Below, piece by piece: positions 12,501-59,527 of a stretch of DNA of 64,000 nucleotides; the stretch's first letter is position 1, and each line of letters begins with the position of its first letter. Where the stretch lies: NCBI RefSeq assembly GCF_964213995.1, contig NC_135821.1, positions 54,064,001 through 54,128,000 on the forward strand. Reading direction: 5' to 3'. The notes under the pieces were generated by a model, which had not been told where the DNA came from, searched no databases, and saw only the letters and a program-made list of their open reading frames with translations. This DNA is from Mustelus asterias. Lineage: Eukaryota. The position numbers and the translations under genes are program-made.

Positions 12501-15500
12501 CAGAATACTGAATGTATCCAGGAAACTTTTCTGTATAGAATGGTTAACTATTTCAGTACAGGCAGTCCCCGGGTTACGAACGAGTTCCGTTTTTAAGTCT
12601 GTCTGTAAGTCGAATTTGTATGCAATTCAGAGCAGTTACGTACGGTTCACATCTAGCGTCAATTAGTTAAATGTTTGTCTTAGTATATAGTATATATTTT
12701 ACCCAAAACATCTTAAATATAATACAGTAATAATAGTAATAATTAATGGAAATGACAAAACTTGGATTATTTTTATATTTATATGTGTGTTTGCAGGTAC
12801 AGTATAAAAAACATTAAAGTAATTTCTTAAAGTAAACATCAAGGGAGGCTTGAACAGAGCTTTTATTTTTCTCATTATAAATGGCCTTGTAGCAGCTGAG
12901 GCCGTCGGTAACTATCCGGTAAACTTTGGTGAACCTCTCTGCATTAGGATCTTGCTCCTCTAACTTTGCCATCCCTGCTTCAATGAGACGAAAGGCTTCA
13001 GCTAACTCCTTCGTCAGAAACTTCTTGGGTTCTGGGGTTTCTACATCCCGGACTTCTTCCTCAAATGCTATCATCTGCTGCTCCAGCTCCATAAGGTCCT
13101 CATTGGTCAGTTCTTCGTCATGGGATTCAAGCAAGTCTAAGACATCATCTTCATTGATGTCTAACTGCAGTTGATTATTACCAATATCAACCACAGCCTG
13201 CCTGGCTTCGGCAATGTCCTCAGCTGTGAACCCCTTAAAACCATGTGCGAATTGGGGGCACAATTTGTTCCACACTCCTTTCATGTTGGTTGTCTTCACT
13301 TCCTCCCAAGAATCTGCAATGTTTTTGATGCCATCGTAGATGTCGTAATTCCTCCAGAACTCCTTTAAGGTCATTGCATCATCTTGGGTAGCCCTGACTG
13401 CTTGTGAGAAGGTCCGGCGTAAATAGTAAGCCTTAAAGGAGGCTATGACCCCTTGATCCATTGGTTGAAGTAGTGATGTGGTGTTGGGTGGTAAAAAGAC
13501 GACCTTTACATTGAGGTGCAGGTCATCTAAAATGCTTGGATGTCTGGGGGCATTGTCAAGCACGAGAACTTTGAAAGGAATCTTCTTGGCCAAGCAATAA
13601 CATTCAGCAGCAGGAACAAAATAGTTCAGGAACCATTCTTCGAAGAGAGCTTTTGTTACCCAAGCCTTTGTGTTTGACTTCCAAATGACGGGAAGAGATG
13701 CCTTGATGATTCGGCTAAGTGCCCTCGGATTTAGGGAGCGATACACAAGCATAGGCTTAAGCTTGCAATCTCCGGATGCATTACCACCAGGCAATAACGT
13801 TAGCCTATCCTTGGATGCCTTATGCCCTGGAGCAGTTTTTTCCTCTTTTGAAATGTATGCCCTTTCAGGCATTTTTTTCCCCCAAAATAAGCCAGTCTCG
13901 TCTACATTAAATATTTGCTCAGGCACATAACCTCCCTCCTCAATAATTTTTTCCAACATTTCAGGAAACTCTCTCACAGCACTGACATCGGCACTCGCTG
14001 CTTCACCTGGCGCTTTAACATTGTGTAAATTTACCCTCCCTCTGAAACGCTTGAACCAACCCCTACTCAACAAATTCTTCATCACAAGCATCTTCACTTG
14101 CTGCACGTGCAGCTTTTAAATCACTGAAAAGGCTTTGAGCCTTTTCTTGCACTAAGCCAAGGCTAATAGGAATGTTACGCTGATTTTGATCCTCTAACCA
14201 AATTACCAATAGCCTTTCCATTTCGATAATTAAACCACTGCGCTGCTTAGTGATAATTGTCGCTTTCATCGGGACAGAGCCTTTTACATGCTCCATTATT
14301 CTCCCCTTGTCCTTTATAATTGTCCCGATCGTTGACCGACTGTAGCCTCACGTTTTTTCAACGTTTGTTGGCGTTTCACCACTCTCCGATTGCTTTATTA
14401 TTTCCATTTTCGTTTCGTGACCGTTTTCCTTTTCTTCGATGCATCACCATCACTTGCATCAGATTTACGCTTTGGAGCCATGATTACGAGGGTAAATACA
14501 CGAAAACTTTAAGTCAAAACAACGCACACAACACCGTTTACGCAATCCGACTTAAAATGGCGACGTCGTCGTGGCGCTGTTCTCCCTCGGGCCGACGAAC
14601 CGCTGAAAACGCGCAGTGTTTTGAGCGCCGCACAATGTAGTCCGCCCGTTCGTTAGTACGAACCATTGTATGTCACTCAATTTTTTTAAATAATAGGAAT
14701 AATAGGTCGGTACACAAGTACGGGCGTTCGTAACCCGGGGACTGCCTGTATAAAGTCCTCTGTTCAATTTAATGCTTGGAAATCTATACATCCTTGCAGT
14801 CTTTGAATTGACCAGCTGGGACAAACAAGTCTCGAACAGGTGCCAGAGTGTGGCAACTGGCGGATTTTCACAGTAACTTCATTGCAGTGTTAATGTAAGC
14901 CTACTTGTGACACTAATAAACAAACTTTAAAACTTTAAACTGATGAACCTATTGCTCTTCACACTCCGGAGGTCAAACCAAAGGAGGTCTGCATTTCAGC
15001 AATTGTAAGCATCTCAAGGAATTTTGCCAAAGCCAGATTCCTGGATAACAAACTACCAATCTGCTAAAAAGTAAGACAGCAAATGTGAGTAAGTGGGATG
15101 TTACACAAGTGCAGAATGAGACGTTTCTAATGTAGGAGCTTTACTCTAGATTTGCAAGATATCATACAGGAAGATGTCTCTAAAAATGTTCTCTTACTTG
15201 AGCAAGGACATGGCACTTCCTTGGCAAGCTGGTCGTGGTCGTTTCTTGAAGAAGTCATGAATGGTTTTTGGCTGTGGCAGATGATATGGTAGAGATAAGT
15301 TTGCCTCTGAGAAAAGAAGTGCATAACGTTACTAACAGGGTTACAAGCGGTTCAACAACTGGCATTCCAGGTCAGAACTGTAGTTTTTGTTGCACGGCAG
15401 GGCAATGGTCAGGTCTTTCCCCACCACTTCTCCCCCGCTCCACTTCATGCCCACCCTGCTCTCGCTCTCCAAACTAAAGCTTCTCACCCCGGGTACCATC

Positions 15501-18500
15501 TGAGTAAATTTCTTCACAATGCTCTGTCACTTGGACATCCTTTCTGAATCACAGCATCCAAAAGCTGAGCATAACAATTCAATTGTTACAAAGGGATACA
15601 AAGCATGAAGCATTGACTTCTGGATGACACCACATTGTACATCACGTCAGCCTGAAAAACATCCATTAACCATTACTAGTTTATAACCACCTTTGGATCA
15701 TACCACTATATCCTCAAATACCGTTTTCTTACATCTGCAGTACTCCTCAACCAATGCCTTTTCAATGTGTATACCAAATCAGATGTACTTTTGTCCAAAG
15801 ATTAATTATTCATCAAGTCCTTAAAACGGAGTAGCAGGAAGTAGCAAGAGGAAATATACGTACAGGCAGTCCGTTCTTAGACTTACGACACAATTGGTTC
15901 CCAAAAACCACGCTGTAGCTCAAACATCAAAGTCAAGGACTGCCTGCACAAGTAGAAGTTAATTCAGATGCTTTAAACCTCACCTCGCATCAAGCGCTGA
16001 GTTTCACTGTGAATCTGACGGATTGCCTCCTTACTCTGTTTCGCCGCCTTCCTCTCTGTACGTACCTTTAAAGGACAAAAGCAATAAAAATTATATTAGG
16101 TAGAGAGGTATAGAACCCAAGACATGAGCAAATGAAATATAATATCCAAAAGTAACCATAAAATGTTTATCTTGGGAGTGCTGGTCACCAGAAAGACTGC
16201 ACTGGATGCAGCATAGCTTCAGTGATCCTTTAGCCTCATCCTCAATAACTGGTTTTATCTATACTCAGGCAATAGAGATTCACAATTTCATTTGAATCAC
16301 GAAAAATAGTCCAAAAAGATGTACATAAACATTGAAAAATTTCTCAATACCGATGCAGAACATTGAAATTTGAGCAATCACATCATGCAGCACTACATTT
16401 TGTCAATGACTCAACACGGAAGTCATGGATTGGTTAGTGGCCAGAATGTCTTAATGGTAGTCAAGCATCACCAGAGATCAGAAAATCAAATAATGTCACA
16501 AACCACTGTTATAATGAAAGAAATATCCCTGTATATTTCATAAATCAGCAGTCACTTCCTATACATAGGTGCTCATGATTGAAGGCATGATGACTACTGC
16601 GACTTCAGTAGCTGCCTGATTGAATAACATTGCACTTTTAGTGCATCTGCAATAGTTAGTGTCTGAAAGAAATATTACATTTCAAACCATAACTTATATT
16701 TAAGTTTTTGAGATGTGGCTGGTGACCACAACTTAACATTATCATAGGCTCAAGATTTGTTGGTTAGGCATGTATCCATGTTTTAAAAAGCAGAAGTTGT
16801 AGCACAGAAACAGACCATTTGGCTCAACTGGTCAATGTCAGCATTTATGCTCCACAGAAATTTCTCCTCAAGGGCACAGGAAAAGGATAAGATGACCAAA
16901 TAACTCATTGAACCAGCCTGCTCTGCTGTTCAATACGGTTGTGGCTGACCTTGGGCTTCAACTCCACATTCCTACCCTCTCCCCATATCCTGCGATTCTG
17001 AGAGACTATCCGAGGTTGAAAGGTATTCAATGGTGGAACGTCCACGATGCCTGGGGCAGAGAATTTCAAAGATTCGTCCCCTTTAAGTGAAGTAATTTCT
17101 CATCTCAGCCCGAAACAATTGGCCCCTTATCCTGAGACTGTGTTTTAGATTGCCAGACCAGTGGAAACAATCTCTCAACATCTACCTCATCAAGTCCTTT
17201 CAGAACCTTCTTTGTTTCAATAAGACAGCCTCTCATTTCTTAGGGAGACCCAAACTGAGTTGATTAGGCTCAATAAGGATTTACTGATTTAAATTACAAA
17301 TACAACATTCATATAAAGTTCAGGAACTTTGAGCTAACTGGACAAACTAAATAAGTAATATCAAATGCCTGAATAAGAGTGTATTAAGCAAGGGGCACGA
17401 TAGACTTGCCTTATTGAACTCACTTATAGTTTCCCAAATGTCTCTCTCTTTATATATCTATTTCAATTCTAAAATATGAACCAATTCAAGGTGCAGTAAA
17501 TAGGGATAGCCATAGCCCCCAAGAGACCATAGGTATCTGTCAGAGAAAGAAGTGGTTACAAAGCTTATGGGGCACCATTCTGCATCGAGCAAGGGGAGGA
17601 GGCAGGCACCCACTAACTACCACATGTGAGCATGTCACAACATAATAAATCCCAGTAATAGAATTGCAGCAAATAACCTACAAATAAAACAATCCTTCAA
17701 AAGAGCAGATTGGTAGAAAAAGCATACAGATTGCAGTAAACATAATCTGCTTAGGGAAACTGCTATAAAGTTATTTATAAAAAAACCTAATTAGGTTGTA
17801 GAGTTTTTTTTAAAAAGGAATTTAAGAATAAAAATTTATAAAGCGTTAAAATAGAACGGGAGAAAATGTCAAAAGATTATTTCAGTCACTACTATAATTT
17901 TGAGGAAAGTGGCTATTCCTAAACATGACACGTTGGGCCTGATTTTACCATTTTGCGTCTAAGTGCCGAATCCGGGCATCAAATAGATCCGCGCCTGGAA
18001 TCCTCTTTCCAGCGCGCCCATACGCATTTTGCCAGTTCCGGTCCGATTCACGCTGTGGGCAGGGCTTAGCGCTGGCGGACCGATCGGAGCTCTGAACTGC
18101 GCATGCACAGTTCGAAAAAAATATCGGCGCAGCCAGTCTGTGGCCGATCCCTCCTCTCAGAGTGGACGTGTGGCCATGCCATCCCACAACACCTTCAGGA
18201 TGAAGCGATTCCTTGCTAAGATGATGAGGCAGAACCAGCCGATTCCACAGTGGATCCGCATGAAAACCGGCTACAAGATCAGTACAACTCCAAGAGGAGA
18301 CACTGGAGAAGGACCAAGCTGGGCCTGTAAAGGGATACACCATCACTGGTACACTACCAGCCACAGATTACTCTTCCCTGCAGGGGCAAGAGAGCGGGAG
18401 AGATGGCAGTGGCTGGTAGTGTACCAGTGATGGTGTATCCCTTTACAGGCCCAGCTTGGTCCTTCTCCAGTGTCTCCTCTTGTACTTATACTGATCTTGT

Positions 18501-21500
18501 AGCCGGTTTTCATGCAGATCCACTGTGGAATCGGCCGGTTCTGCTTCATCTTCTTAGTGAGGAATCGCTTCATCCTGAAGGTTTTGTGGGATGGCATGGC
18601 CGCACGTCCACTCCGGGAACAGGGATCGGCCGCTTTATAAATTTTTATTCTTAAATTCCTTTTTAAAAAAAACTCTACAACCTAATTAGGTTTTTTTATA
18701 AATAACTTTATAGCAGTTTCCCTAAGCAGATTATGTTTACTGCAATCTGTATGCTTGGCAGCGGACCCCCCCCCCACCAGAGGATGACCTGCCCCCCCCC
18801 CACCCACCCAAACCAGAGGATGACCTGGGTCAGAGAGCCGTTGCAGGCTCTGACCCCGCTCTTCGGAAGCTGCAGCGACGACTTCAGACTTTTATTTTTC
18901 AGGTCGCTTACAGCGCGGATGCGGAACAGACCAGAGGACGGTAAAGTGGGATTTGGCGGTAGAGTTGGGTGCGCGGTTCATTAAGTCGATTTAAATGCAT
19001 GCAAATGCATTCAAATCGTCAGGCCGCCCGATTCGGGAGCGGGCCGGACCCGCGCCCGAATCGGGTGTCAGTAAAGCCGCGACCTGCTCGGAATTGGGTG
19101 CAGATCGCGGTATAGGCCCAATGCCCAACTTTACCGTGATTTCGCGTCCGAAAACAGAACCTTGTGTGCAATAAACAGTGACCTATCCTTAGCCAATTAC
19201 CTTTTTCTCTTCTATTTGCATCAACGATTCCTCGCAGTCATAATCCTGGAGATTTTTAGCAGATGGAACCAGTTTGGTACTCTAAAATCAGAAATAAACA
19301 ACTGGGAAAACGCTCAGCAACTGTACAAGAAACCAAACTCCAACACAATTAAATTTACAAATGCCTAAATCCTGCACTGAAATAGTTTCGAATTAAAAGA
19401 ACAAAAAGTAATAATGATCGGGTGAACTATTTGCTCAATCATGTGAGATATTTTATTCCCTATACTATATCGAATAGATGGTAAGAAATCATCAATCCAG
19501 ATAGAATCCTCTCTACTCTTGATCTCCATCCAATGTGTCCTGCTAGGAAGTGCACGCAAATGGACACTGACAAGGGCAAGATCGGCATCATGAATAAGTG
19601 ATTTTTAACATTTAATTTCAATCAGAGTGCAGATGGTAATTGTTGTTCACGGACTAAAATAAATGTCTAGAAAAGAGTTTGGCAGCAACAACTTCTATTT
19701 ATGTAGCACCTTTAATATAAAGCTTCCCAAGGCTCTTCACAGAAACATTATAAAACAAAGTATTACACGGTGTCACAAAATAAAAGGAGATATGTCAGAT
19801 GAGCAAAGGCTTGGGAAAAAGGAGGTAGGTAATGTGGAGTTCTTGACGAGAAAAGCAAGATAGAGAGATGTCTGGAGTGTTTCCAGAGTTTGGAGCTGAG
19901 TCAACTGAAGGGCTGGCCACCAACAATGAAGCGATTGAAATGGGGAATCCACAAGAGGCTGGAATTAGGGAAGCGCAGATACCACAAGAGGGTTGTGGGG
20001 TTGGAGGAGAATACAGAGGAAGAGGGAGCCGAGGCCATAGAAGGATTTGAAAACAAGGATGAATATTTTAAAATAAGATGTTGCTTGACTGGGAATCAAT
20101 GGAGGTCAATGTGCACAGTAGTGATAAGGGAACAGCAGCTGGCAAGCAGGTCTAAAATTATACAACTAAGAATTTCTTGTACCATGAATAGCTGAAATTG
20201 TGTCATGAGTGATTCCATGCAGCCAAAACCTAGTTCTGGTAACTGTATTGCATTAATGAATAACCTTCACAAATGATTTGATGACGACTGAGTTTATAAC
20301 AGGTTGGATTAACCCCACCATCTTAAATTTATGTTTGACAGATGTACAAAATCTATTCCTGCACAATCAGATAAACCATTGTAACCTGGGATTCACATTA
20401 CTCATACAGTTCTCACGAGCTCGAATTTTACCCTCCTCACCGGCAGTCTTTTAGTCTGGGGGAAGTATTTGCGTGAAGAGAGAGAACGTGAAATTGAGGG
20501 GATAGGATCTCCCTAGGCTACACAGCAATTTTACTCTGCGGTGGGCAAGGCCATGGATGGGAAGCCTGCCCTTGCTCCAACTGAGACCCTTAAAATAAGG
20601 GCTGTTTCCTGGCCAACCTCAATCTTTAGGCTGGCAGGAAAATTTAATCTTTGTGCAAGCAGGCTGGAAAGAATCAAAGTTGCATCTCAGGTGACGGTGG
20701 TTGGGGGTTCCTCCATGAGAAGCCCCCCATTCTTTCCTTTCCCTCCCAAGGCTTGACCTCTGGCACCTCACCCTCCCCCCCGCTCCATGACCCTCATCCA
20801 CCCGCCCCGCCCCCCCCTCCCTCCGACCACAATACCCCAATTCTTCTCTGCCCTGGCTCCTGTATACACATCTTATCCTGTGACACCAGCCAGGATGTTG
20901 GATTTATGTCACATTATCAGTAACCCCCACAGCTTGCCTCCTGGACTTGCAGAATCTCACTAGCTGTTCTGTCTGGAGACAATACACATCTCTTTAACCT
21001 GTGTTTAATGTTCCCTCCACCCACATTGTCTGTACCTTTAAGACCTGGCTGGCTTTCGGGATTCGCATTCTAATCAGTATTCTGTAACTTGATGTTGTGT
21101 CGCTGTGCACTGTTTAAGAGCACATTTCCACTCCATCTGACGAAGGAGCAGCGCTCTGAAAGCTTATGGTATTTGCTACCAAATAAACCTGTTGGACTTT
21201 AACCTGGTGTTGAGAGACTTCTTACTGGGCTCCAGCACTTAGGCAGGTTGGTCGCTCTTCTGTCCGCTGCAGCGTGGGCAAGCACATATACAAACAAGGA
21301 AGTTGCAAAAGGCAGGACTTTATTGTACTCAAAAGGCAGATTATAGATGGTAAAATCCAGGCTGCTTCTGCCCATGGTACTGCACCCCAACAACAGTTAA
21401 CCCCCTTCTTCACATAAAATTGGCAAAATATTTCAATTTGCGTCGTGAAATACAATTGAAAAAGATGGAAATTGCACTCACTTTGGATTGCTTTGCTTTC

Positions 21501-42471: not shown

Positions 42472-45400
42472 CTAAAGAAAAAAGCATTACTTTCAATATA
42501 TAACTTGGAAGACAAATTCAACCATATCTTCATTACAAATTCATGCCAAATCGGAGAACAACTTCTTGGCCTCCAAAATAGAGGATATGCATTTGTCTGC
42601 CTTAACATCCTCTTCACATTTCCCATTCACGGTCTTTCCTGAACTTCTCAAATCTCTTACAAAGGCAGCCCAGACTCCAAACCCTCTAGCTTCATTTAAT
42701 CCGTCTCCATGAAACCCAACTCCTTCAGTGATGTCAGTGACACCACTTTATTCATCATTCTGCTCCCGTCTGTCCTAGTATATCTCTGACAAAGACTTCT
42801 TCTGCCCTTGCAGAATGACCTCTGCTATCCCCAACATTGTATGCAAATTGATATCAAGCCACTTATTCTTTTCTCCAGCGTTATACTTTTACAGGTGCAC
42901 AGCACTATTTATTCTATAAGCTTCTCTCCACAAACTACTCAAAACTGTATTAGTTTTACATTGTATGCAGTGCTTGGAGATCGCGATGATGATTAGGGTT
43001 GGAGGAATGGTTGGGTTAAACAATTCGCTTTTTGTACCTGGTGTGCCAGCAAGTATGCGACTCATCATCAGACCCAGAGTGGTGAAGTTAGCAGCAAGAA
43101 TCAAGTGACGTTGGCTATAAAGCAATGACTGTAGGGATTCCATTAACAAACTAAGTAAAGATGAGAAACATTCTTCCTGCCTGCAGCAACAGATAAAAAG
43201 GGCAAGGGTAAGCAAAACTTAAAACAGTGCAGGAACCTCCCCCCACCCTTAATAAATATCAGGTCTCACCAAGAATCATTGTGAAACCCATTCAACAACT
43301 TAATTATTTTAAATACCATTTTCGGTCCGGAGAGAGAAATCAATAAATTATCGCCAGCCTGTAATCAGCAGTTCATTTGTGAAAATAGATGTTGAATATT
43401 AGATACGGGAAAAAGATGCCTGACCATTTAGTAAATTGAAACACTGAGTAAATAGTTTTAATAGTGAATTTCAAAACTGTCAATATTCAGCTTTCTGATA
43501 GCTCAGCAGATTAACACAGCGAGTCGTCAAATCATACCACCTGGGAAGGACTCAGGATTGATCCATCAACCCAGGCAGGAATCTGCCAGCCTCACCTGGT
43601 CAAACCAATACATGACTCCAGTCCTACACAAATTGAATCTTAATGCTCATTGATCAAATAGGATAGACAAAAGAACTTGCAGGGGATGATGGGCCTCATG
43701 TGTAATGCCCCACAACTGAATTATCTGCTAGCAGTCACTGGTAAAACTTATGCATGCGCCACAATAATTTGAACACCGTACTATGTCCCAGCAAAAAGTC
43801 ATGCCTTCTGGAGAAGTGGAAAGGATATATTGAAGGGGAATTAAAGATACATATTCATAAACCGTGTTTGTACTTTCGATGAACAGTATCACAGGCAGAG
43901 CATTAGTGGTTGGAGTAATTAAAACAAAATGGTGCCACGGGTGGCATAGTGGTTAGCACTACTGTCTCTCAGCGCCAGGGACCCAGGTTCAATTTCAGCC
44001 TTGGGTTACTGTCTGTGTGAAGTTTGCATTTCTCCCTGTGTCTGCGTGGGTTTCTTCCAGGTGCTCCAGTTTCCTCCCACAGTCCAAAGATGTGCGGGTT
44101 CGGTTGATTAGCCATGCTAAACTGACCCTAGTGTCGGGGGATTAGCAGGATAAATATGTGGGGTTTTGGGAATAGGGCCTGGGTGGGATTGTGGTTGGTA
44201 CCGACTCGATGGGCCAAATGGCCTCCTTCTGTACTGTAGGGATTCTATGATTCACTATCCTGACAAGTCCGTCTCTTGCATTGTCAAAGCGGTTGATTTT
44301 CCTGGCTTGTTTCTGCCCTGACACTGGACAAGAAGAACATACTCAAAGTACATGTGCTTGTCCAGCCATTGGAGCATTGCTATCGCCCATCCTGGAATCT
44401 GGCCCAGAACCTGGGCCTTTGGCCGGATGAAATGGGAAAAATATAAATGTAGCTACAGCACTGGGCCTCTGCATGGAGTTTTCCAGCTGCTGATGGAGTT
44501 TAATAAGCTCATTTTGATCAACTCCAGCCCAGACTGAAAAACAACAATTTGCCGCAGCTTATGTTTTGTATATAAATTGCAATTACTTGTTGCATTGAAG
44601 GGTATAGCACTGAGCTCTGCTAAACTTTTATTTCCTAACCATTGTTTATTTTTTCTCCAGACTCATTCACTAAGCTTCTGCCTTCCATTTCAATTTCTGA
44701 TTTTGTCTCACCCAAATTCACCTTTAGCTTCCCAAGCCCCTGCCAACAATTATACACTAAATATTGTAAACCTCCTGTCTGGGGGTGGGGTACTGAGTAC
44801 CTGATCAACGCAGGCTCTGTTACCACAAGGTTTAGAAAAATTCCACAGGCCGTTCGAAGACTCATCTCTGCATCATCCGGCAAAATCAGTGCATTTTGAG
44901 AAGAACTGAAGACCTCCCACTGTTGTGTGAAATAACGAAGAAGCAGAACATGAAACCCATGTGAAATTAAGATCCTCCGAGGGATGTCCTCAGCCGAAAG
45001 GTGACAGAATCCAGGTAACAGGAACCTATACGTGGAGACATACCATTAGTAAAACACTGCATGTGCACTCAAATGGCGAGACACAGCTTTCTATCTATAA
45101 TCTTCAACATAATTTTAGCCATAACTATCTTAAAAGTTAAAAATTGAGTTAGTGATCTTTCATAGTTAACGGGTATAGTTGCACTACTGTTTCATCATTT
45201 AGTTTCAAACCTCATTAATCTGCCAGCTAAAGCATTTCACATGAACATTAGTAATAATCATGATGCTGAAAAGCCAAAAAGGAGGTAACTTCTCAAACTG
45301 AACTCTAAATTTAGCAACAGACGGAATGGCTATAATTTTTCAGCAACAAATCAGATCACATGTTCAAAACCCTATCTCCTGAGCACAGAAAGTCTGAAGT

Positions 45401-48400
45401 GTGGCATGGAAAACACCTAGGAAGTGTTCATTGATTCAGCCAGTGATAATTTAACAGTTTGTCTGTGAGGAGTGAGGTCACTTTAGCAAGGTGTAGCTGT
45501 GATAATTGTGGCAAATTATACATTGGTGCACCCCATCCCCCCCCAAAAAAAAATTTGAGATTTTCTTTGGCCACTGAATGATAGAAGTAGAACACCAGCC
45601 GAAGCGAAGCTCTGACCCATCAGGTTGAGAGGTTAATATTACAATGCACAATATTAGTGATCATTAAATGGACTCCATTTAATGCTGTATCATATTTTCA
45701 TTCTTACCTCAAGGCGTCTTTAGACCAGGTTGTTGCCTCGGAGCTCTCAGCTAGCGATAGTCCTTTCACTTGATTGTCTAGGTCATCAGATTTTATTGGA
45801 CATTCAAACAACACCTGAGCATAACGAATCAGAAAAGGCAGTACATCACAGATTTCCTGTCTGAGTGCATAAGTCTCTTCAGCCATCCACGCGCCCAGAA
45901 TCCGGACTGAAGCAAATAGGAATGGACTCCACAGCTGTTCCTCTGTAACCTACGGTATAGGGAAGAGTAAACAAGTGTGAACTGCATTTGCTTTTTAAAA
46001 TATATAAAAGAATTTCACAGCAAAAATGTGTACTGCAAGAGATTGAAACTAAGCTTCGACGCCATAAGTCTTGGAGTCAGAGAGGATAACAGCATAGAAA
46101 CAGGCCCTTCGGCCGAACTTGTCCATGCTGCCCCTTTGTTTTTAACCACTAAGCTAGTCCCAATTGCCCTCATTTGGCCCATATTCCTCGATAGCCATCT
46201 TACCCATGTAACTGTCTAAATGCTTTTTAAAAGACAAAATTGTACCCGCCTCTACTACTACCTCTGGCAGCTTGTTCCACACACTCACCACCCTCTGAAA
46301 TAATTGCCCCTCTGGACCCTTTTGTATCTCTCCTCTCGTATCTTAAACCTATGCCCCCCTAATTTTGGACTCCCCTACCTTTGGGAAAAGATGTTGACCA
46401 TCTAGCTGATCTATGCCCCTCATTATTTTACAGACCTCAATAAGATCACCCCTCAGCCTCCTACACGCCAGAGAAAAAAGTCCCAGTCTATCCAGCCTCT
46501 CCTTATAACTCAAACCATCAAGTCCCGGTAGCATCCTAGCAATTTTTTTCTGCACTCTTTCTAGTTTAATAATATTCTTTCTATAATAGGGTGATCAGAA
46601 CTGTACACACAGTATTCCAAACGTGGCCTTACCAATGTCTTGTACAACTTCAACAAGACGTCCCAACTCTTGTATTCAATGTTCTGACCAATGAAACCAA
46701 GCATGCCAAATGCCTTCTTCACCACTCAGATTGCAATAAGCAAGTGAGGTCTGCACCACTGGAGAGGAATTGTTAAAACTGCACCCAGTGTTTCTCAGAA
46801 GAATATATTGACTCCCACAGGATTAAACATCACTCATTCTGTCATCCTAAAAATATCTTGTAGAACAAGGAAGTAAGACTGAGCTTGGAAAATAGGGCTT
46901 AAACATTTACAACATTTGTAAACCTTCAACCACTGCAACCTTCATACTCATCTGATAGAAATTCAGTTTCCCCTTTGGCACTTGCTGTCTACTTTTCTTG
47001 GTTACTTTCTTGAGATCAATTTAAAAGTTTGCCTGCAATGATGGCCAATTGGACTGTACCAAGTGTACTGCACACTGTTCCAACTGAATCTGTGGTTTGA
47101 TAATTTCTGAACTCTCTCAAGCAGTTATGGGCGGCACGGTAGTACAGTGGTTAGCGCTGCTGCTTCACAGCTCCAGGGTCCCGGGTTCGATTCCCGGCTC
47201 GGGTCACTGTCTGTGTGGAGTTTGCACATTCTCCTCGTGTCTGCGTGGGTTTCCTCCGGGTGCTCCGGTTTCCTCCCACAGTCCAAAGATGTGCGGGTTA
47301 GGTTGATTGGCCAGGTTAAAAATTGCCCCTTAGAGTCCTGAGATGCGTAGGTTAGAGGGATTAGCGGGTAAAATATGTGGGGGTAGGGCATGGGTGGGAT
47401 TGTGGTCGGTGCAGACTCGATGGGCCGAATGGCCTCCTTCTGCACTGTAGGGTTTCTATGATTTCTATGAGTTATCAAATATAATAGTACAGCTGGGAAC
47501 CAACTCCCTCGCCCCACCCCAATCTGGCCGAGATCGAGAATTTACGATCTGTTGTGAAAACATAACAGCAGTGTGTGACAGCCCGATAGTTTATCATTTC
47601 TTACAACTTCAAACAACAGCAGTAAGAATTTCCACCATACAAAATATACTTTCAGAGGTGAGACAGGCACTGTTTCAAGTCCACATCCACTAGTGACCAT
47701 AACACAAAATATTGAACGTGGGAAATGCATTAATTGCACTGCATTCATGAAATGGTTAAGGGCCTGCATTACACTAATCAAATATAAAAGAGAACTCTGA
47801 ACTACGTTATTCTGACATAAATATATGATTACATTCACCCCACTGGGGTGGCACAGTAGCTAGCACTGCTGCTTCACAACGTCAGGGCTCCGGGTTCAAT
47901 TCCCGGCTTGGGTCACTGTCTGTGCAGTTTGCGCGTTCTTCCCGTGTCTGCGTGGGTTTCCTCCGGGTGATCCAGTTTCCTCCCACATTCTGAAAGACGC
48001 GCTGGTTAGGTGCATTGACCCAGACAGGCACCGGACTACGGCGACTAGGCTAATTTCACAGTAATTTCATTGCAGTGTTCGTGTAACCCTTACTTGTAAC
48101 TAATAAATCAACTTTACTTGACTTCAACCCACCATCCCAAGCTTCCCACTGTGAACAATATTAAATGGGCTAGATCAAAGGCAAAAACAATAACCTGAAC
48201 ATTCGTGAATGTTTGAATGTGAGGATTCAAAACCAAAGCAACATAATCTGCACTTTTGACAAATGTGGTTAGAAGAAAATACAAATTACAAATACAGTAA
48301 ATTATTCCAATGATAGTCACATTTCCATACTTCACCTGCTTAAAATAGCCAATGACTGCTCCAAAAGCCTCCACCATTATCTGTACTAATTGGCTACTTT

Positions 48401-51400
48401 CAGCTTCTGTTAGACAGACTTTATCCCCAAGTACACAAACCATCATCCCAAACTCAATGATACTGTAACATGCCGTGATGACATCTGGTTTAGAGTTAGC
48501 TGCATCCAGGTCTGGGTCCTCCAAACAAATCCGAACTTCCACACAGGCCAGATTCACCATCAGTGCCAGGAATTTACTTCTTGTTTCGGTATTTTCTGCC
48601 AGTATCCAGTCTGAACCATAGACAGTCAATAATAAGCCGGCAAGTTTCAGTGCTGGGTCCCGTTGTGAGACACTCAGCTTGCTGCTGAGAATGCTGAAGA
48701 GACCAGTGTGAAAGTTCTTTAAGCACCCAGTGAGAGATGGGTCCTCAGTTAGGATAGGTACGGCAGGCAGAAAATGCTGCAAAACGTTACACAGGTTAAA
48801 TTTCCGGTTATCTTCTTCTGTAGCAAACTGTTCACTGAGCTTGATCAGTACCTTCAAAAGGTCGAGCTTACAAGTTTTCCAACACTTGTTTTCCATTGCA
48901 TTCAGGAGAGTGACAAGAAGACACAGTGCCTGCTCGTGGCCATGACTTTGGTTTAGATAAGCCTGACATAATGCTGACACTGTTCCTTGAGTTACTAGAT
49001 GTTTCTGACCCTGAGGATGGGCAGATATCGCATGGAGACATTGGTAACAGTCATCGATCATTGGTGTGAAGGTGGCAACATCTGCTCCAGAGTCTACTTC
49101 TGAACTAATAATTTCATTAAAAATCGGGATTTTGTTGAGGATTTGTGGGTGAGTAACCAATTCTGGATTTGTGGAAAAACATGCAAGCAGAGTAATGCCG
49201 AGAGCTCGGAAAATTTGGCTGGGACAGCCGTGTGGTGACTCCTTGGTAATAAGAAGTCGGTTTGGGAAAGAGAATCCAATTGCATCAAATATCCGTCGCC
49301 GGGTTCCCGCATCAATTTCACCTGCCTTCACCACCTTGGTCACCTAAAAGAAACACATTTAATTCAATGCATTGTCAAACACTGAATGATGCTGCACAAA
49401 ACTGTCAGGAACAGTCTTTCAATTGTCTAATCAGTTCAATGGTAGTGATTTTTTTTCAGTTTTTTTCCCCCAAATGGAATACAAATCAAAAGGTTATTTC
49501 TTTATTCTTTCATGGGGTGGATGGGTGTCTCTGGCAAGGCTAGCATTTGTTGCCCTTGAGTTGAGGGGCTTTATCAGCCATTTCACAGGGCAGTTAAAAT
49601 TCAACCACATTGCTGTGGGTCTGGAGTAACATGTGGGCCAGAACAGGCAAGGGGACTCGTGAACTAGATGGGTTTTTATGACAATCAATGATACCTGTCA
49701 TGGTCACAATCATTGATTATAGCTTTATATTCCAGATTTATTAATTGAATTTAAATTCCATAGATGCCATGTTGGAGCATTAACCTGGATCTCTGGATTA
49801 TTAGTCCAGTGACATTAATTTGCACTATCGTTTCCTCATAAGAAATAGGAGCAAGTGTAGGCCAATCAGCCCATCAGACCTTTTCTGCTACTTCAGAACA
49901 TAGCCGATCTGATTGTCGCCTTAACTCCACTTTCCTGCTCAAGTTAACCCTCGAGTCCTTCACCAATTTTTTTTCTAACTCAGCCTCAAACAGATTCAAT
50001 GACTCAGTCTCCACTGCCTGCTGGAAAGTTAATTCCAAACATTAGTGATCCTCAGAAAAAAAATCCTCATCTTCATCTTAAATTGGGACCAACGTAATTG
50101 GGCATCTACTCTGTCGAACCACCTCAGAACCATATGTTTCAACCAGATCCATCTCATTTGTTCTGAACGCCAATGAATATAAACCTTTCCACCATTTCAA
50201 CCTTTCCCCAGAAAGAAAACCAACCTCTTCACCCCAGGAATCAGCCAAGTGAGCTTTCTCTGAATCATTTCCAACACATGTATATCCCTCTAAAGTAAGC
50301 AGAGCAAAAACATTCACCCTCTTTTAAGCGCAGTCTCGCCAATAATCTGTACATTTGTATCAAACCTTCCCTACTTTTATACTCCATCCCCATTGCAATA
50401 AAAGCCAATATTCTATTTGCCTTCCTAATTACTTGCTATAGCTGCATGCTAACCTTTTGTGCATCATGTACTTATGATTGCTCTACACTGTAGAATCCTG
50501 CAGTCCCTCTGTTTGCAAACTCTTTTTATGCTCTTCACCACTTGCTTTCCCACTGAAATTCGTATTGCAGCCAAATTTGTTGATGATACAATCTGCCTCA
50601 TGTCAATATAGTTGAGGTCCCAGTACAAATTCTGATTTGCCTTTCCTGGATCACTCGTCCAGACCTCTGAATTGCGAGCCTGTCAACATGACCACGATAA
50701 ATGCAGTATTCCTAAATAACCTGGCTTCATAATTTAACCTTTTAAATCCCTGTTTTATTCTAGTGAACCTGCATTGACCTCCTCCAAGGCTAACATGCCT
50801 CAGAAAGGGTGTGTCGAAAATTGCGTGCACTCCTGATGGGATCTGACCAACCCTCTGTACAAATGCAGAGTAACTCTCCCCACTTGGGCCTCTTGAAAGA
50901 AAGGACAAAAATCCATTAACCTCAAATTATTTCCATACTTGTGCATTAACCTTCAGTGATTTGTGCACATACAACCAAATCCCTTTGATCATCCATAGTT
51001 ACTGGTTTCTCATCAAGAAAATATTCAGATTTGTTCATGCTGGATCCAAAGTGGATGTCCTCACACTTCACACAGCTACAGATTTGCTTAGAACTTAATC
51101 TGTCCATGTCCCTTCTTGCTCCCATGTATACAATTTACTGTGCTCTTTAATATAGTGTCTTCTGCAAACATGGTACTCTCCATTCCTTCATCCATGTCAA
51201 TGATTGTTATGGTAAAAGGTGGAGACTCTAATTAGAATTTTCAATTTCCATACATTCTGACGACTACTATCCCACCAATTGTCATTCAGTGTCACAAAGT
51301 TCTCTCCAATTCTGCTTGCTTTTAGTTTTGTGAATAATCTCTTGCGGGTAAGGTACTATAGAAATGCAAGTCCCTGACTGGTTATACAAACTCATCCACT

Positions 51401-55420: not shown

Positions 55421-56510
55421 CGAAGCAGAAAGGAAAGGGGCGGCTGATTTGATTGTGAGGATGATGGTGCGGGGAGAGGATTCGATGCGGTTGTAACAGG
55501 GAACCTTCAGCCCCCCCCCCAAAACCTGAGCCACCTCTCAAATGGCCAAGTGCGGCTTCAGAAAGGCCTCCAGGGAAGCGGCACCAGGGTCGCCCTGGGC
55601 GGAGAGTCAGCTTGAACCAGGCTGAAGCCTCACCTGAAGCAAATCATAGACCACAGCGGCACCTTTACTGGGAGCTCTCCCGTTCGGTGGGGGGGGACAG
55701 CGCGGCCGCCGGCGACCAAATTAAAGAAGCAGCAAAACCAGAGTCACAAGAGCAGCGACTCACCCTGCACCGCAACAGCAGCATCCGGGGTATGATCAAC
55801 TCTGACCCCCAAAGCAGCATCCGGGGTATGGTGAACTCTGACCATCCCCCCAAGCAGCATCAGCCAATCAGCACCACCGACCTATCAGAGCTCGACCCAT
55901 CCCCCCAGCAACCGTCGCTAGGCGGCGGGCGGACCAATAGGGAGCGAGGGGCCCCGCGGAGAGTCACGTGGGGCTGAGCCCGCGGGGTCTGTCCTGTTCA
56001 GCCTGACATTCGCAGCGCAGCTCCCGCTATGTGCGCACCGCCCCGCCGGAGATGACTGGATCTTCACCACCGGCCCATCTGCAACCGCGAGTATCGGTGT
56101 TTTAAATCCCTGAACATTGGAAAGTCCGCCTCGCCTCCTGTCCAAAGGTTTTGTTTTGAATTGGTTGCAATAATTATTCACCCTCCCGGGCGGCCCGGAA
56201 CCAGTGCACTCCGCTCCCCGGTTTCTCCGGATCCTGTTGGTGGGCGGACACATTTCCCCCTTATGGGGGGTTTCAGGCGCCAAGGACAACCTGCTCCCCG
56301 GCTGATGTGTTGGTGGGTATTTTCCTGACCCGCTGTCTGGTCGGGTATTGAGCGGCGTCACTGATACATTTATTTATAAATTATAATCGGGGTTTACTGG
56401 CGGGGCGGGGGGGGGGGGGGGGGGGATCAGGGAGCGGAAATGACACGGAGCTTGTGTTTGAGATGCTGGAGGCGCTGGCAGTTGGAATCGTGAATCGCGG
56501 GGTGGGGAGG
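55420..56510. promoter_or_regulatory. CpG island: NCDN promoter and first exon (donor AGG|gtgagt at 55763, minus strand), probably bidirectional
   Basis: CCAAT boxes (~55864, ~55934), GC box, E-box GTCACGTG (~55963), ETS-type CGGAAAT (~56435), strong minus-strand donor. Confidence 0.7.
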
Positions 56511-57740
56511 AGGAGGAGAGAGAGAGGATAGACGGACAGAGAGGGGGGGAGAGGATAGAGAGAGGGAGAGGGGATAGACAGAGAAAGAGGATAGACAGAA
56601 AGAGGATAGACAGAAAGAGGATAGACAGAAAGAGGATAGACAGAAAGAGGATAGACAGAAAGAGGGGATAGACAGAAAGAGGGGATAGACAGGGAGAGGG
56701 GATGGACAGAAAGAGGATAGACAGAAAGAGGGGATAGACAGGGAGAGAGGATAGATAGAGAGAGGATAGACAGAGGGGGAGAGAGAGGATAGACAGAGGG
56801 GGGGGAAGAGAGGATAGACAGAGAGAGGGGATAGACAGAGAGGGGATAGACAGGATCGACAGAGAGAGGGGATAGACAGAGAGAGGGGAGAAAGGATAGA
56901 CAGAGAGAGAGGATAGACAGAGAGGGGGGGAGAGAGGATAGACAGAGAGAGAGGGGAGAGAGGATAGACAGAGAGGGAAGAGGATAGACAGAGAGAGGGG
57001 AGAGAGGATAGACAGAGAGAGGGGAGAGAGGATAGACAGAGAGAGGGGAGAGAGGATAGACAGAGAGAGGGGAGAGAGGATAGACAGAGAGAGGGGAGAG
57101 AGGATAGACAGAGAGAGGGGAGAGAGGATAGACAGAGAGAGGGGAGAGAGGATAGACAGAGAGAGGGGAGAGAGGATAGACAGAGAGAGGGGAGAGAGGA
57201 TAGACAGAGAGAGGGGAGAGAGGATAGACAGAGAGAGGGGAGAGAGGATAGACAGAGAGAGGGGAGAGAGGATAGACAGAGAGAGGGGGAGAGAGGATAG
57301 ACAGAGTGAGGATAGACAGGGAAAGAGGAGAGAGGATAGACAGGGAGAGAGGATAGACAGGGAGAGAGGATAGACAGGGAGGGTGGATAGACAGGGAGGG
57401 TGGATAGACAGGGAGAGAGGGGGGAGAGAGGATAGACAAAGAGAGAGGGGGGAGAGAGGATAGATAGAGAGGGGAGGGAGCTTAGATCGATAGGGAGAGA
57501 GGATAGATCGATAAGAAGAGGGGGGAGAGAGTGAAGGGGGAGAGGATACGAGAGAAGGCGAGAGAGGGGATAGGATAAGAGGTAGGGATGAGAACATAAA
57601 TGAGAGGGAGATAAAGAGGAAGGAAGGAATATTAGGTAGTAGGAGAGAGGGGAATAGAGAGGAAAGGATGCGAGAGAGGGATAGCTGACTAGAGATAGAA
57701 AGGGGAAGGGATAATTGATAGAGGGTGAGAGACAAAGTGA
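56505..57740 (+). repeat. Polypurine minisatellite; core 24-mer GGATAGACAGAGAGAGGGGAGAGA and 14-mer GAGGATAGACAGAA
   Basis: Directly visible; about a dozen near-perfect 24-mers at ~56980-57290 with degenerate flanks. Confidence 0.97.
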
Positions 57741-59527
57741 ATCATGGGACGGAGAGATCGAGGGGGAACAGGGATAAGTCGGGAGTAAGGAATATAGAGG
57801 TTGGGGGGGCGAGAGGATAGCAACAACCAGGTGACCGAGGAAGGTAAACCGGAGACAAGAGTGAGGGAGAGATCTGGACAGAAAGAGACTCAGAGAGCCG
57901 GTGACTGCAGGATCGGCATCGATGGGGGCAATAAACAACAGTGGTGTGTGCCAGAGTGTAGGCTTGACAGCCGGATATTGTTCCGGCGACACTCATCCTG
58001 ATCAGGCGTCTGTGGAGCCCGAGCGGCAGGTGCCCGATGCGTTTTATTTGTTTTCATATTCATTGCCCAGCAATGTTTTTCTCACGCATTCCAGCAGCAG
58101 CAGGGAGGTGGTCCGGATTTCACTGGCGAGTACATTAACCCGCTGTTCCTCAGTCTAGATTCACCATATGGTCGATGAATATTCTGGAAGTTGGTAGCAG
58201 CCGAATAGCACTTGGAGTTGGGAAATCTCCTACTCTGATCATTTACCCGACATTGTACAAGTGATGTCATATCGGTTCAGTCGATTGTAGTTTTAAGTCT
58301 TAAACAGTGATGAGCAATAAGCGTTAGACAGTTGTGCTGCTAGGTATGATAGCATCTGTGAGATCACTAGAATGGTCAAAGATTTTTTACAATATTTGCA
58401 ATAACATGCTTTTCATGTTGGAGATTTAAAAAAACTTGCATTTATATAGTGCTTTTCATTTCCATATGATATCCAAACGTGCTTTTAACGCAGTTGCTAA
58501 TTTGCACACAAACGGCAGTGCTGGTTCAGAGGTAAATGCTGACCAGCACAAAGAACTGCCATCTTCTTTGCGTGATGTTGTACGTTGAACAGAAGAATCT
58601 TGGTGTAGGGTCTTGCCAAATGGTTGGCATTTCTGCCGATGCAGTGTTCCTTCAATCCTGGACTACAGAATCAGGTTAAACCAGTTACTAATACTCTGGA
58701 ATGGAAATGAATCTGCAACTTCCTGGCTGAAGTGAGACTGCGACAACTGAGGCAAGCTGACATGAGGGAATTAGTTAACTCTTTCAGGGTTTCAGAATCA
58801 TGTTTGCAATAGTTTTAACTTCTTTAATCAAATCTGCATAAAATTGTGTAAAATTTCTATTTGGATTTAACAGTCGGTGGCTAAAATAGATTTTGGAATG
58901 GGAAATGTTTTAGTGTTTATAGTTTAGTCGATGTATGGAAAATCTGAAGGAATGTTTTTTCACGTAGCTATGTTGTTTCATCAATTAATCATTGTAAAAT
59001 GAATTATCCATATGGAATTTATTGGGTAACTAACAATTCATTGTAGATGTCTTTAGTTAATGCTGTTGGATAGACTATTCTGCAAATGATTATGAACTGA
59101 TGAGCATTTTATGTAGTAATAGTTAACTTAAAAACTTGACCATGCACAGCATTTTCAAAGGTTTCCAGAGATGCACAATACTGACTGTTTAAAATTAATT
59201 TTTAATGACATTATTGTAGGTCACCTCTTTAAAAAGTAAACTAGTGATGTGAATAGTTTCCAAGGGCAAGGTTCATTGCTCCAGAGAAAGTCTTTGGTAG
59301 TTATGCTTGGCATTTAAATGCAAGTACAGTGTGCATATTTAGGAAATAATGAACATTATATTTGACTTGTACAATTAGTAAATTGCATTGGGGTGTTTAT
59401 TATCTAAATGCCATATGAGTCCAAGATGCTGCATTATCAAAATGTTCAACCCTTGCTTGAATTTACAGAAAGTTGGAACTCAAAGTTTCTTGTATCATTT
59501 TTGGTTTCCTTCAGACTTTCACTAAGA

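Follow-up and report, generated by a model that had tools for sequence, protein, structure and literature searches.

The window is a 64,000-nucleotide stretch of the Mustelus asterias genome (contig NC_135821.1, forward-strand positions 54,064,001 to 54,128,000) that includes CLSPN sequence on the minus strand. tblastn placed CLSPN exon 5 at 19281-19198 and the coding match of exon 6 at 16068-15985 (numbering follows isoform X2, counted from the ATG exon). Intron 5, between them, carries the two mirrored RPL39 copies described in the initial annotation. The left arm (18142..18364, plus strand) and the right arm (18409..18631, minus strand; 1 base longer than the earlier end at 18630) each hold RPL39 sequence and differ at 15 of 223 nt, with 10 mismatches within the CDS and the innermost 74 nt identical, in agreement with the earlier estimates of ~94% CDS identity and a ~75-nt perfect core. 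The 44-nt spacer (18365..18408, minus strand) had been read as a palindrome around CCTGCAGG; we rejected this as a derived feature, since the sequence is 3′UTR of the host’s own RPL39, matching host exon 3 and extending the right arm. The true axis of symmetry falls at 18366|18367.

The RPL39 mRNA in the left arm (18160-18366, plus strand) comprises 5′UTR, CDS (18176-18330) and 3′UTR, with 222 identities to the host spliced mRNA and a Pfam Ribosomal_L39 match; the right part (18367-18614, minus strand; CDS 18597-18443) has 238 identities, 10 mismatches and 1 gap. The host RPL39 gene, intact elsewhere in the genome (G000:C14:8582829-8590117), has three exons, with SNORA69 within intron 2. The cargo is 95–96% identical to its spliced mRNA, crosses both exon joints and lacks both introns, so the two copies are intronless, as first proposed. 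Both coding sequences lack 1 nt where exons 2 and 3 meet (ATC AG-TA) and both read GYKI, again as reported, but the MPSH ‘substitution’ was rejected as a derived feature because host RPL39 begins in the same way. The cargo ends 76 nt into the RPL39 3′UTR and then gives way to transposon sequence. At this locus we saw neither a poly(A) tail, whose absence had been pointed out, nor a target duplication belonging to the RPL39 cargo itself; transposon sequence flanks it instead. Aligned to host RPL39, as the initial annotation had proposed, the arms proved near enough to target it: 57/203 and 95/247 of their 21-mers are identical to the host mRNA, with a longest exact run of 63 nt.

The predicted folding energy of the fold-back is −454.6 kcal/mol (z −41.5), which none of 100 shuffled sequences equalled, and the fold check suggested earlier thus favours a strong hairpin. 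On the minus strand, which is the one transcribed with CLSPN, the prediction is −450.7 kcal/mol, so that a long RPL39 stem in CLSPN pre-mRNA, as had been claimed, is predicted. Missed in the earlier reading was a perfect 126-bp inverted repeat, 17720-17845/18631-18756. Its plus-strand intron stretch (17720..17845) served as template and is present in a relative’s empty-site contig (see below), while the inverted copy of this left flank (18631..18756, minus strand; 100% complementary) sits at the hairpin base with 1–2 nt of microhomology. The insert was absent from 29/29 other loci of the transposon family described below and is therefore private to the window copy; its stem lengthens the hairpin, with a predicted fold of −725.7 kcal/mol for 17720-18756.

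Palindromes may be chimeric, and a 126-bp repeat that is 100% identical could raise the suspicion of an assembly or library artefact. Against this stand the 15 differences between the arms, the recurrence of this junction at 1,568 sites, contigs in another organism (G) that bridge the junction, and a same-species contig graph that breaks at 17720, with depth raised over the duplicated stretch (although that sample may be the assembly’s own). A same-species contig also spans the broken right-end junction with 0 differences; contigs of the species at the 18756 and 17935 junctions (n = 2) fall below our 31-letter bridging rule. An artefact is extremely improbable, and the fold-back structure is genuine.

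A non-autonomous PIF/Harbinger DNA transposon carries the fold-back as its cargo and is present here as a damaged copy (17935..19155, plus strand) that had also gone unnoticed. Its ends are 78–94% identical to other loci, and its broken right end lies 42 nt from the donor of CLSPN exon 5. The left terminal inverted repeat (TIR; 17935..17950, 16 bp, beginning GGGCC) is where similarity to sister copies starts in most loci. It is followed by a left subterminal region (17951..18122), after which the GC-rich repeats that come next in sister copies have been deleted; in several sister loci the matches to 17935-18122 and 18128-18633 are separated by about 200–300 bp. The right subterminal region (18756..19155) lacks its final ~30 bp including the right TIR, to which sister copies continue. 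Pairs of 16-bp TIRs were found in sister copies, and these are shorter than the 25–50 bp described as usual for Harbinger elements (PMC2572040). Of 109 unique closed copies, 77 were flanked by a 3-bp target duplication, mostly A/T-rich (shifted control, 0/109), and 32 had no perfect duplication. Because the window copy has neither target duplication nor right TIR, its membership of this RPL39 fold-back subfamily rests on its other parts and on the empty site: a contig of a relative (organism C) joins 17928 directly to 19162.

One locus, L181, bears a transposase (DDE_Tnp_4, 120 bits; a Myb match of 19.6 bits is below the cut-off of 21.7) between the same TIRs as the family, with an AGA duplication and ends that are 71–86% alike. 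As L181 and the left end of the window copy share only 76% identity, and no single frame encodes its whole transposase, we regard L181 as a relative of the family’s mobiliser, not as the proven mobiliser.

The exact 22-mer across the fold-back junction has 1,568 matches in the shark genome and a 21-mer over the frameshifted CDS has 900 (controls, 0 in each case), while the junction pattern with the host’s base has only 2. Among 1,192 candidates, all 40 that were scored had 95–100% identity. In organisms A and B the summed depth over the cargo was close to that over the ends (ratio ~1), against a ratio of 0.008 for organism C; this ratio is not a copy number, but the contrast hints at a lineage-specific burst. 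Host gene sequence lies inside the TIRs and the donor gene is intact elsewhere, as in a Pack-TIR.

These results bear on the proposal of the initial annotation that a single dead RPL39 retrocopy was mirrored within CLSPN intron 5 and kept there as a source of endo-siRNAs tying CLSPN expression to RPL39. That the cargo is RNA-derived, frameshifted and mirrored holds, and both the long predicted pre-mRNA stem, extended by the private 126-bp repeat, and the high identity of the arms to host RPL39 would suit such a role. However, the mirroring took place elsewhere: the junction and the frameshift are common to the whole family, the site is empty in the relative, which means that the element inserted at CLSPN later, and the arms have diverged independently. 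A local origin is refuted, the regulatory link between CLSPN and RPL39 is unsupported, and we consider the proposal as a whole very improbable. Since the locus holds one damaged copy of an element found mirrored at >1,500 places in the genome, its RPL39 hairpin is likely to be a passenger in CLSPN and not a claspin-specific regulator; by sequence comparison the CLSPN copy is not singled out, its arm divergence being like that of other copies.

The window copy has 7 private changes in one arm and 5 in the other, with 0 shared. Across 13 full fold-backs, arm divergence was 3.7% within copies versus 4.0% between copies, and no general homogenisation of arms after insertion was seen; some private changes were nevertheless common to both arms in 3 of the 13, so some conversion between arms does occur. 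No compensatory changes were seen in the stem of the window copy. CpG sites were mutated at 64/856 positions versus 136/10,166 for non-CpG sites, a hypermutation that suggests a methylated family. We rejected a special status for the perfect inner 74 nt, as every copy shows little divergence there (1.8% within copies and 2.1% between them) and the stretch contains 0 of 16 CpG sites. Only 3/30 junction loci have both arms ≥200 nt, and in 25/30 the stem is <30 nt. An open frame was retained in 26/32 sampled single-arm copies (a sample biased to intact copies), but purifying selection on intact single-arm copies was also rejected: 57 non-synonymous and 25 synonymous changes in 25 copies gave 0.70 against an expected 0.76–0.78 (z about −1.4), which is not clearly different. 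Taken at the sequence level, the arms appear to decay neutrally.

RPL39 is not the only cargo. Sister subfamilies carry OPA1 pieces, which are mirrored too (an inverted arm was found in 38/40 scored copies), and MRPL55 pieces resembling cDNA; both cargoes are probably spliced, judging by their uninterrupted frames and by the structure of these genes in vertebrates. A further locus, L010, is a palindrome over the whole element. Mirroring therefore recurs in this Harbinger family (RPL39, OPA1 and L010).

We consider it highly probable that the fold-back is mirrored, spliced RPL39 cargo of a non-autonomous PIF/Harbinger element, and that its hairpin probably arose within the element, was dispersed as the element transposed, and in CLSPN is likely to be a neutral passenger. 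In the route that we propose, a repair gap at the centre of the element would have been filled by copying either RPL39 cDNA or part of a retrocopy that has since disappeared, and fold-back synthesis at the element’s internal inverted repeats would then have produced the mirrored RPL39. A variant with the frameshift may have come to occupy both arms by copying, and a Harbinger transposase acting in trans would have multiplied it. Once the element sat in intron 5, the repair of breaks at the base of the hairpin would have introduced the templated flank insertion, and loss of the right TIR would have fixed the copy in place. Within the nucleus, the predicted stem of about 350 bp in the pre-mRNA would likely undergo editing or be broken down along with the intron, and not be diced to an RPL39 regulator.

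For the capture step, it is only slightly less than an even chance that gap repair copied the DNA of a pre-existing, LINE-made RPL39 retrocopy, the standard Pack-TIR route, and not RNA or cDNA directly. Gap filling is given as the main route to Pack-TIRs (PMC8277862), and an old, 5′-truncated RPL39 retrocopy with an A-rich end (L138, 81%) means that RPL39 has been retroposed in this lineage; L138 itself, however, has diverged too far to have supplied cargo of 96–98% identity. We found no young donor, as the distal RPL39 3′UTR matches the host gene and L138 only, and a family TIR lies ≤1.5 kb from each of the 27/27 intact exon-joint matches.

A broader possibility shares this origin but adds an effect in trans of the family as a whole. 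Its many copies would give rise to hairpin transcripts or piRNAs that cross-target the mRNA of host RPL39 (and OPA1), a vertebrate counterpart of the silencing conflict described for captured genes in maize (10.1101/777037). The exact 21-mers and the 63-nt run, the predicted folding of both strands, the CpG hypermutation of a seemingly methylated family and a single X21 contig bridging the junction (from another species, its RNA nature only guessed) are all consistent with it. On the other side, few siRNAs are reported from long hairpins outside mouse oocytes, with their truncated Dicer (PMC6391682), most junction loci retain only the short stem noted above, and the window copy has no compensatory changes; we think such cross-targeting unlikely. 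Equally doubtful is the wider scheme in which the shark Harbinger family repeatedly captures spliced mRNAs (RPL39, OPA1 and MRPL55) and mirrors them about its own axis of symmetry, and in which thousands of hairpins yield small RNAs in the germline that target the captured genes; if true, it would constitute a transposon-built, genome-wide source of hairpin RNA in a vertebrate. X21 and X23 are both contig sets of other species whose RNA nature is guessed. In X21, pieces of host-like RPL39 reach depths in the thousands, against 3.6 for the one junction contig, but depth is a poor measure of expression and was given no weight.

The shark genome holds at least three amplified cargo genes, one with >1,500 junction copies and two mirrored, with intermediates preserved. 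It thereby offers a natural series for the uptake of RNA-derived sequence by DNA transposons and for the rise and decay of fold-backs, and a system in which one could test directly whether transposon silencing costs a vertebrate its donor genes. For annotation it is also a warning: thousands of RPL39-like matches are transposon cargo, many single-arm copies in our sample with an open frame.

Our search of the open-licence literature found no matching report. In a survey of animal Pack-TIRs (Tan et al. 2021, PMC8277862), multicopy capture is reported as rare, with 4 multicopy cases among 370, a frog example of 3 copies and 0 in the one cartilaginous fish surveyed, the elephant shark; its text and 12 supplementary files contain no mention of RPL39, OPA1 or MRPL55, and Supplementary Data 1 has 37 mentions of PIF-Harbinger. 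The multicopy cases of that survey had arisen by transposition, and their target duplications differed. The shark family is likewise a TIR transposon with host gene sequence, but it has >1,500 junction copies and spliced, mirrored cargo. The hAT elements of Pseudocercospora fijiensis that carry histone H3 likewise place a housekeeping spliced transcript or retrocopy in a DNA transposon, there in 471 elements, but these are fungal, 9.5 kb long with a transposase domain and 8-bp duplications, and RIP-inactivated, and we noted no fold-back in the account in PMC6710886. Turmoil-1 of C. elegans is a Harbinger with inverted host coding fragments, for which a capture hotspot was suggested, but its cargo retains an intron and lies in long terminal repeats, and it has 9 copies and its own transposase (PMC2572040). 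As in maize Pack-MULEs, Helitrons and Sireviruses, small RNAs guided by captured exons could act on the gene that donated them, although maize uses a plant pathway of 24-nt siRNAs and DNA methylation with measured small RNAs (10.1101/777037), whereas the shark family is known from sequence. The mouse-oocyte endo-siRNA loci also form long RNA hairpins nearly identical to a host mRNA but need an oocyte-truncated Dicer (PMC6391682), and the shark hairpin is the cargo of an intronic transposon. Set beside these systems, the shark family is a new form of gene capture by Pack-TIRs, and its copy number, RNA-derived cargo and repeated mirroring are unusual in a vertebrate.

The fold-back lies between coding exons 5 and 6 of CLSPN, a minus-strand gene, as placed by mapping of the claspin isoform X2 protein, and its assignment to intron 5 in the initial annotation is therefore right on the isoform X2 coding-exon numbering. 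The M. asterias isoform X2 record was 100% identical to one large exon in the window. The inverted repeat itself was present as proposed, with arms at 18142-18364 and 18409-18631 that differed at 15 of 223 nt and were perfectly matched over the inner 74 nt. Its predicted folding energy was −454.6 kcal/mol, which lay at z = −41.5 relative to 100 shuffled sequences, and that of the minus strand was −450.7 kcal/mol. Elsewhere in the window, a minus-strand open frame of 433 codons lies within a CLSPN intron (12814-14115) and contains a DDE_1 transposase domain, neurochondrin exons at 44635-49343 (minus strand) mark the adjoining gene, and 56374-57992 is occupied by a long tandem repeat that is rich in purines and strongly skewed between strands.

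Host RPL39, located through SNORA69 and a Pfam match, is on contig C14 and has an ATG exon, a 104-nt exon 2 and an exon 3, with GT-AG introns and an intact frame beginning MPSH; the MPSH in the arms, earlier listed as a substitution, is therefore host sequence. The arms crossed both exon joints without introns and were 95-96% identical to the host mRNA, with exact 21-mer matches at 57/203 positions in the left arm and 95/247 in the right arm plus loop. The supposed spacer is no separate element; it is host RPL39 3′UTR continuing from the right arm, so that mRNA 52-259 is fused to the reverse of mRNA 299-51 (numbered with the ATG at 68) across an axis at 18366|18367. The 1-nt deletion was confirmed and falls at the exon 2/3 joint; the absence of poly(A) also held, the cargo being tailless and truncated at both ends.

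The initial annotation had a single dead retrocopy mirrored in CLSPN intron 5. Its observation of an inverted repeat is confirmed and its interpretation partly supported: the fold-back is cargo of a dispersed transposon with terminal inverted repeats. Likeness to sister loci spanned 17935 to about 19155, bounded by 16-bp inverted repeats, and a related-species contig provided the empty site, joining 17928 to 19162. Among 109 unique copies with both terminal repeats, drawn from 171 loci examined, 77 had a 3-bp target duplication (shifted control, 0/109). A query with one arm gave 95-100% identity for 40/40 scored candidates (of 1,192), spread over many contigs. Exact genome matches numbered 1,568 for the junction 22-mer, 900 for the frameshifted CDS 21-mer and 2,182 for the left end, with 0 for every control. 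Full-length fold-backs were a minority at 30 junction loci, where both arms were at least 200 nt in 3, 30-199 nt in 2 and below 30 nt in 25. At least 12 head-to-head pairs of the CDS 21-mer occurred among the 100 matches listed; by extrapolation, the genome would hold roughly 100-300 full fold-backs. The features tested for a non-autonomous Harbinger, and for a Pack-TIR, were found. Of those tested for a LINE-primed RPL39 retrocopy inserted at CLSPN, intron removal was seen, but a poly(A) tail and a target duplication of its own were not.

Screening of 30 Harbinger transposase loci, taken from 150 scored, identified a locus (L181) that shares these terminal repeats, is flanked by an AGA duplication and has ends 71-86% like those of the RPL39 element. 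It encodes DDE_Tnp_4 and a sub-threshold Myb domain, a pair matching the two-gene transposase-plus-Myb layout of Harbingers as outlined in PMC9392472. The genome's Harbinger load is very large; a first look gave 10,689 transposase candidates, many with long open frames.

The CLSPN copy is damaged, having neither the GC-rich repeats after 18122 nor the right terminal repeat. Flank 17720-17845 recurs as a perfect inverted copy inserted at the base of the hairpin, its junctions showing 1-2 nt of microhomology, an arrangement that we take to resemble templated insertion at a repaired break. A same-species contig, which may derive from the assembly's own sample, spanned the broken right end with 0 differences. 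In pre-mRNA, the flank repeat is predicted to add a second stem, stacked on that of RPL39 (−725.7 kcal/mol).

We infer the history of the family as a whole from sequence comparison. A single RPL39 capture is suggested because all family copies compared share one base change from the host. Organism G, one of the sequence sets compared, has contigs that bridge the junction, and its contigs carry the host nucleotide at 18202; this pattern suggests an order in which the junction formed first and subsequent changes spread to both arms ahead of the burst. The deletion was in 38/39 short and 24/24 long arms of the fold-back subfamily; one locus (L042) had the junction and an intact RPL39 frame. A family terminal repeat lay near 27/27 exact matches to the intact exon joint. 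A single-arm subfamily of ~1.9 kb carries mRNA 51-240, its frame intact in 26/32 sampled copies. In such copies (L031-L041, L080-L106) the frame, where intact, has 51 codons, and ~600 bp of AT-rich sequence follows; the L088 frame is identical to host RPL39 protein. The orientation of the centre relative to the ends flips among copies, many have partial arm loss, and one (L010) is a palindrome from end to end. An abundant short derivative (L065:918-2040, L072:963-2070) has only a putative 29-bp RPL39 3′UTR hairpin, nearer in size to a microRNA precursor, and L138:1369-1587 is an old 5′-truncated RPL39 retrocopy, 81% identical to host, with an A-rich end.

Cargo at 30 left-end loci comprised RPL39 (at least 11), MRPL55 (at least 2) and OPA1 (at least 2). 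MRPL55 cargo was 96-100% identical in 40/40 scored of 129 candidates, with target duplications in 11/15 copies; the ~2-kb sister subfamily (L118:1715-2460, L139-L158) has a cDNA-like insert that in L118 contains UTRs and an open frame. OPA1 cargo was 98-100% identical in 40 scored of 565 candidates, 38/40 with an inverted arm, and duplications flanked 14/18 copies; this subfamily, with a mirrored Dynamin_N fragment (L128:1130-1335, L189-L208), is apparently younger than that of RPL39. An OPA1 C-terminal piece is cargo at L133, and further inserts, some with inverted ends, lie at the element symmetry axis in L122:2100-2700, L126 and L129.

Selection is unnecessary to account for the perfect inner stem. 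Across 13 full fold-backs, arms diverged by 3.7% within copies versus 4.0% between copies; 3/13 had a few private changes common to both arms, and the CLSPN arms had 7 and 5, with 0 shared. CpG sites were mutated at 64/856 versus 136/10,166 for other sites, and 0/16 CpG sites fell in the perfect stretch. The CLSPN copy, once proposed as a candidate endo-siRNA locus, is likely a neutral passenger; any RPL39 targeting, if it occurs at all, would come from the whole family and not from CLSPN. Long hairpins expressed in mouse cells gave rise to few siRNAs except in the presence of the Dicer form of oocytes (PMC6391682), and cross-talk between captured exons and donor genes is described for maize (10.1101/777037).

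Searches of openly licensed papers turned up no earlier account of such a shark element. Pack-TIRs, some of them Harbingers, have been described in animals; PMC8277862 gives 4/370 as multicopy and none for elephant shark. Spliced housekeeping-gene cargo amplified to hundreds of copies is also described for a fungal hAT (PMC6710886), and inverted cargo inside a Harbinger for Turmoil-1 (PMC2572040).
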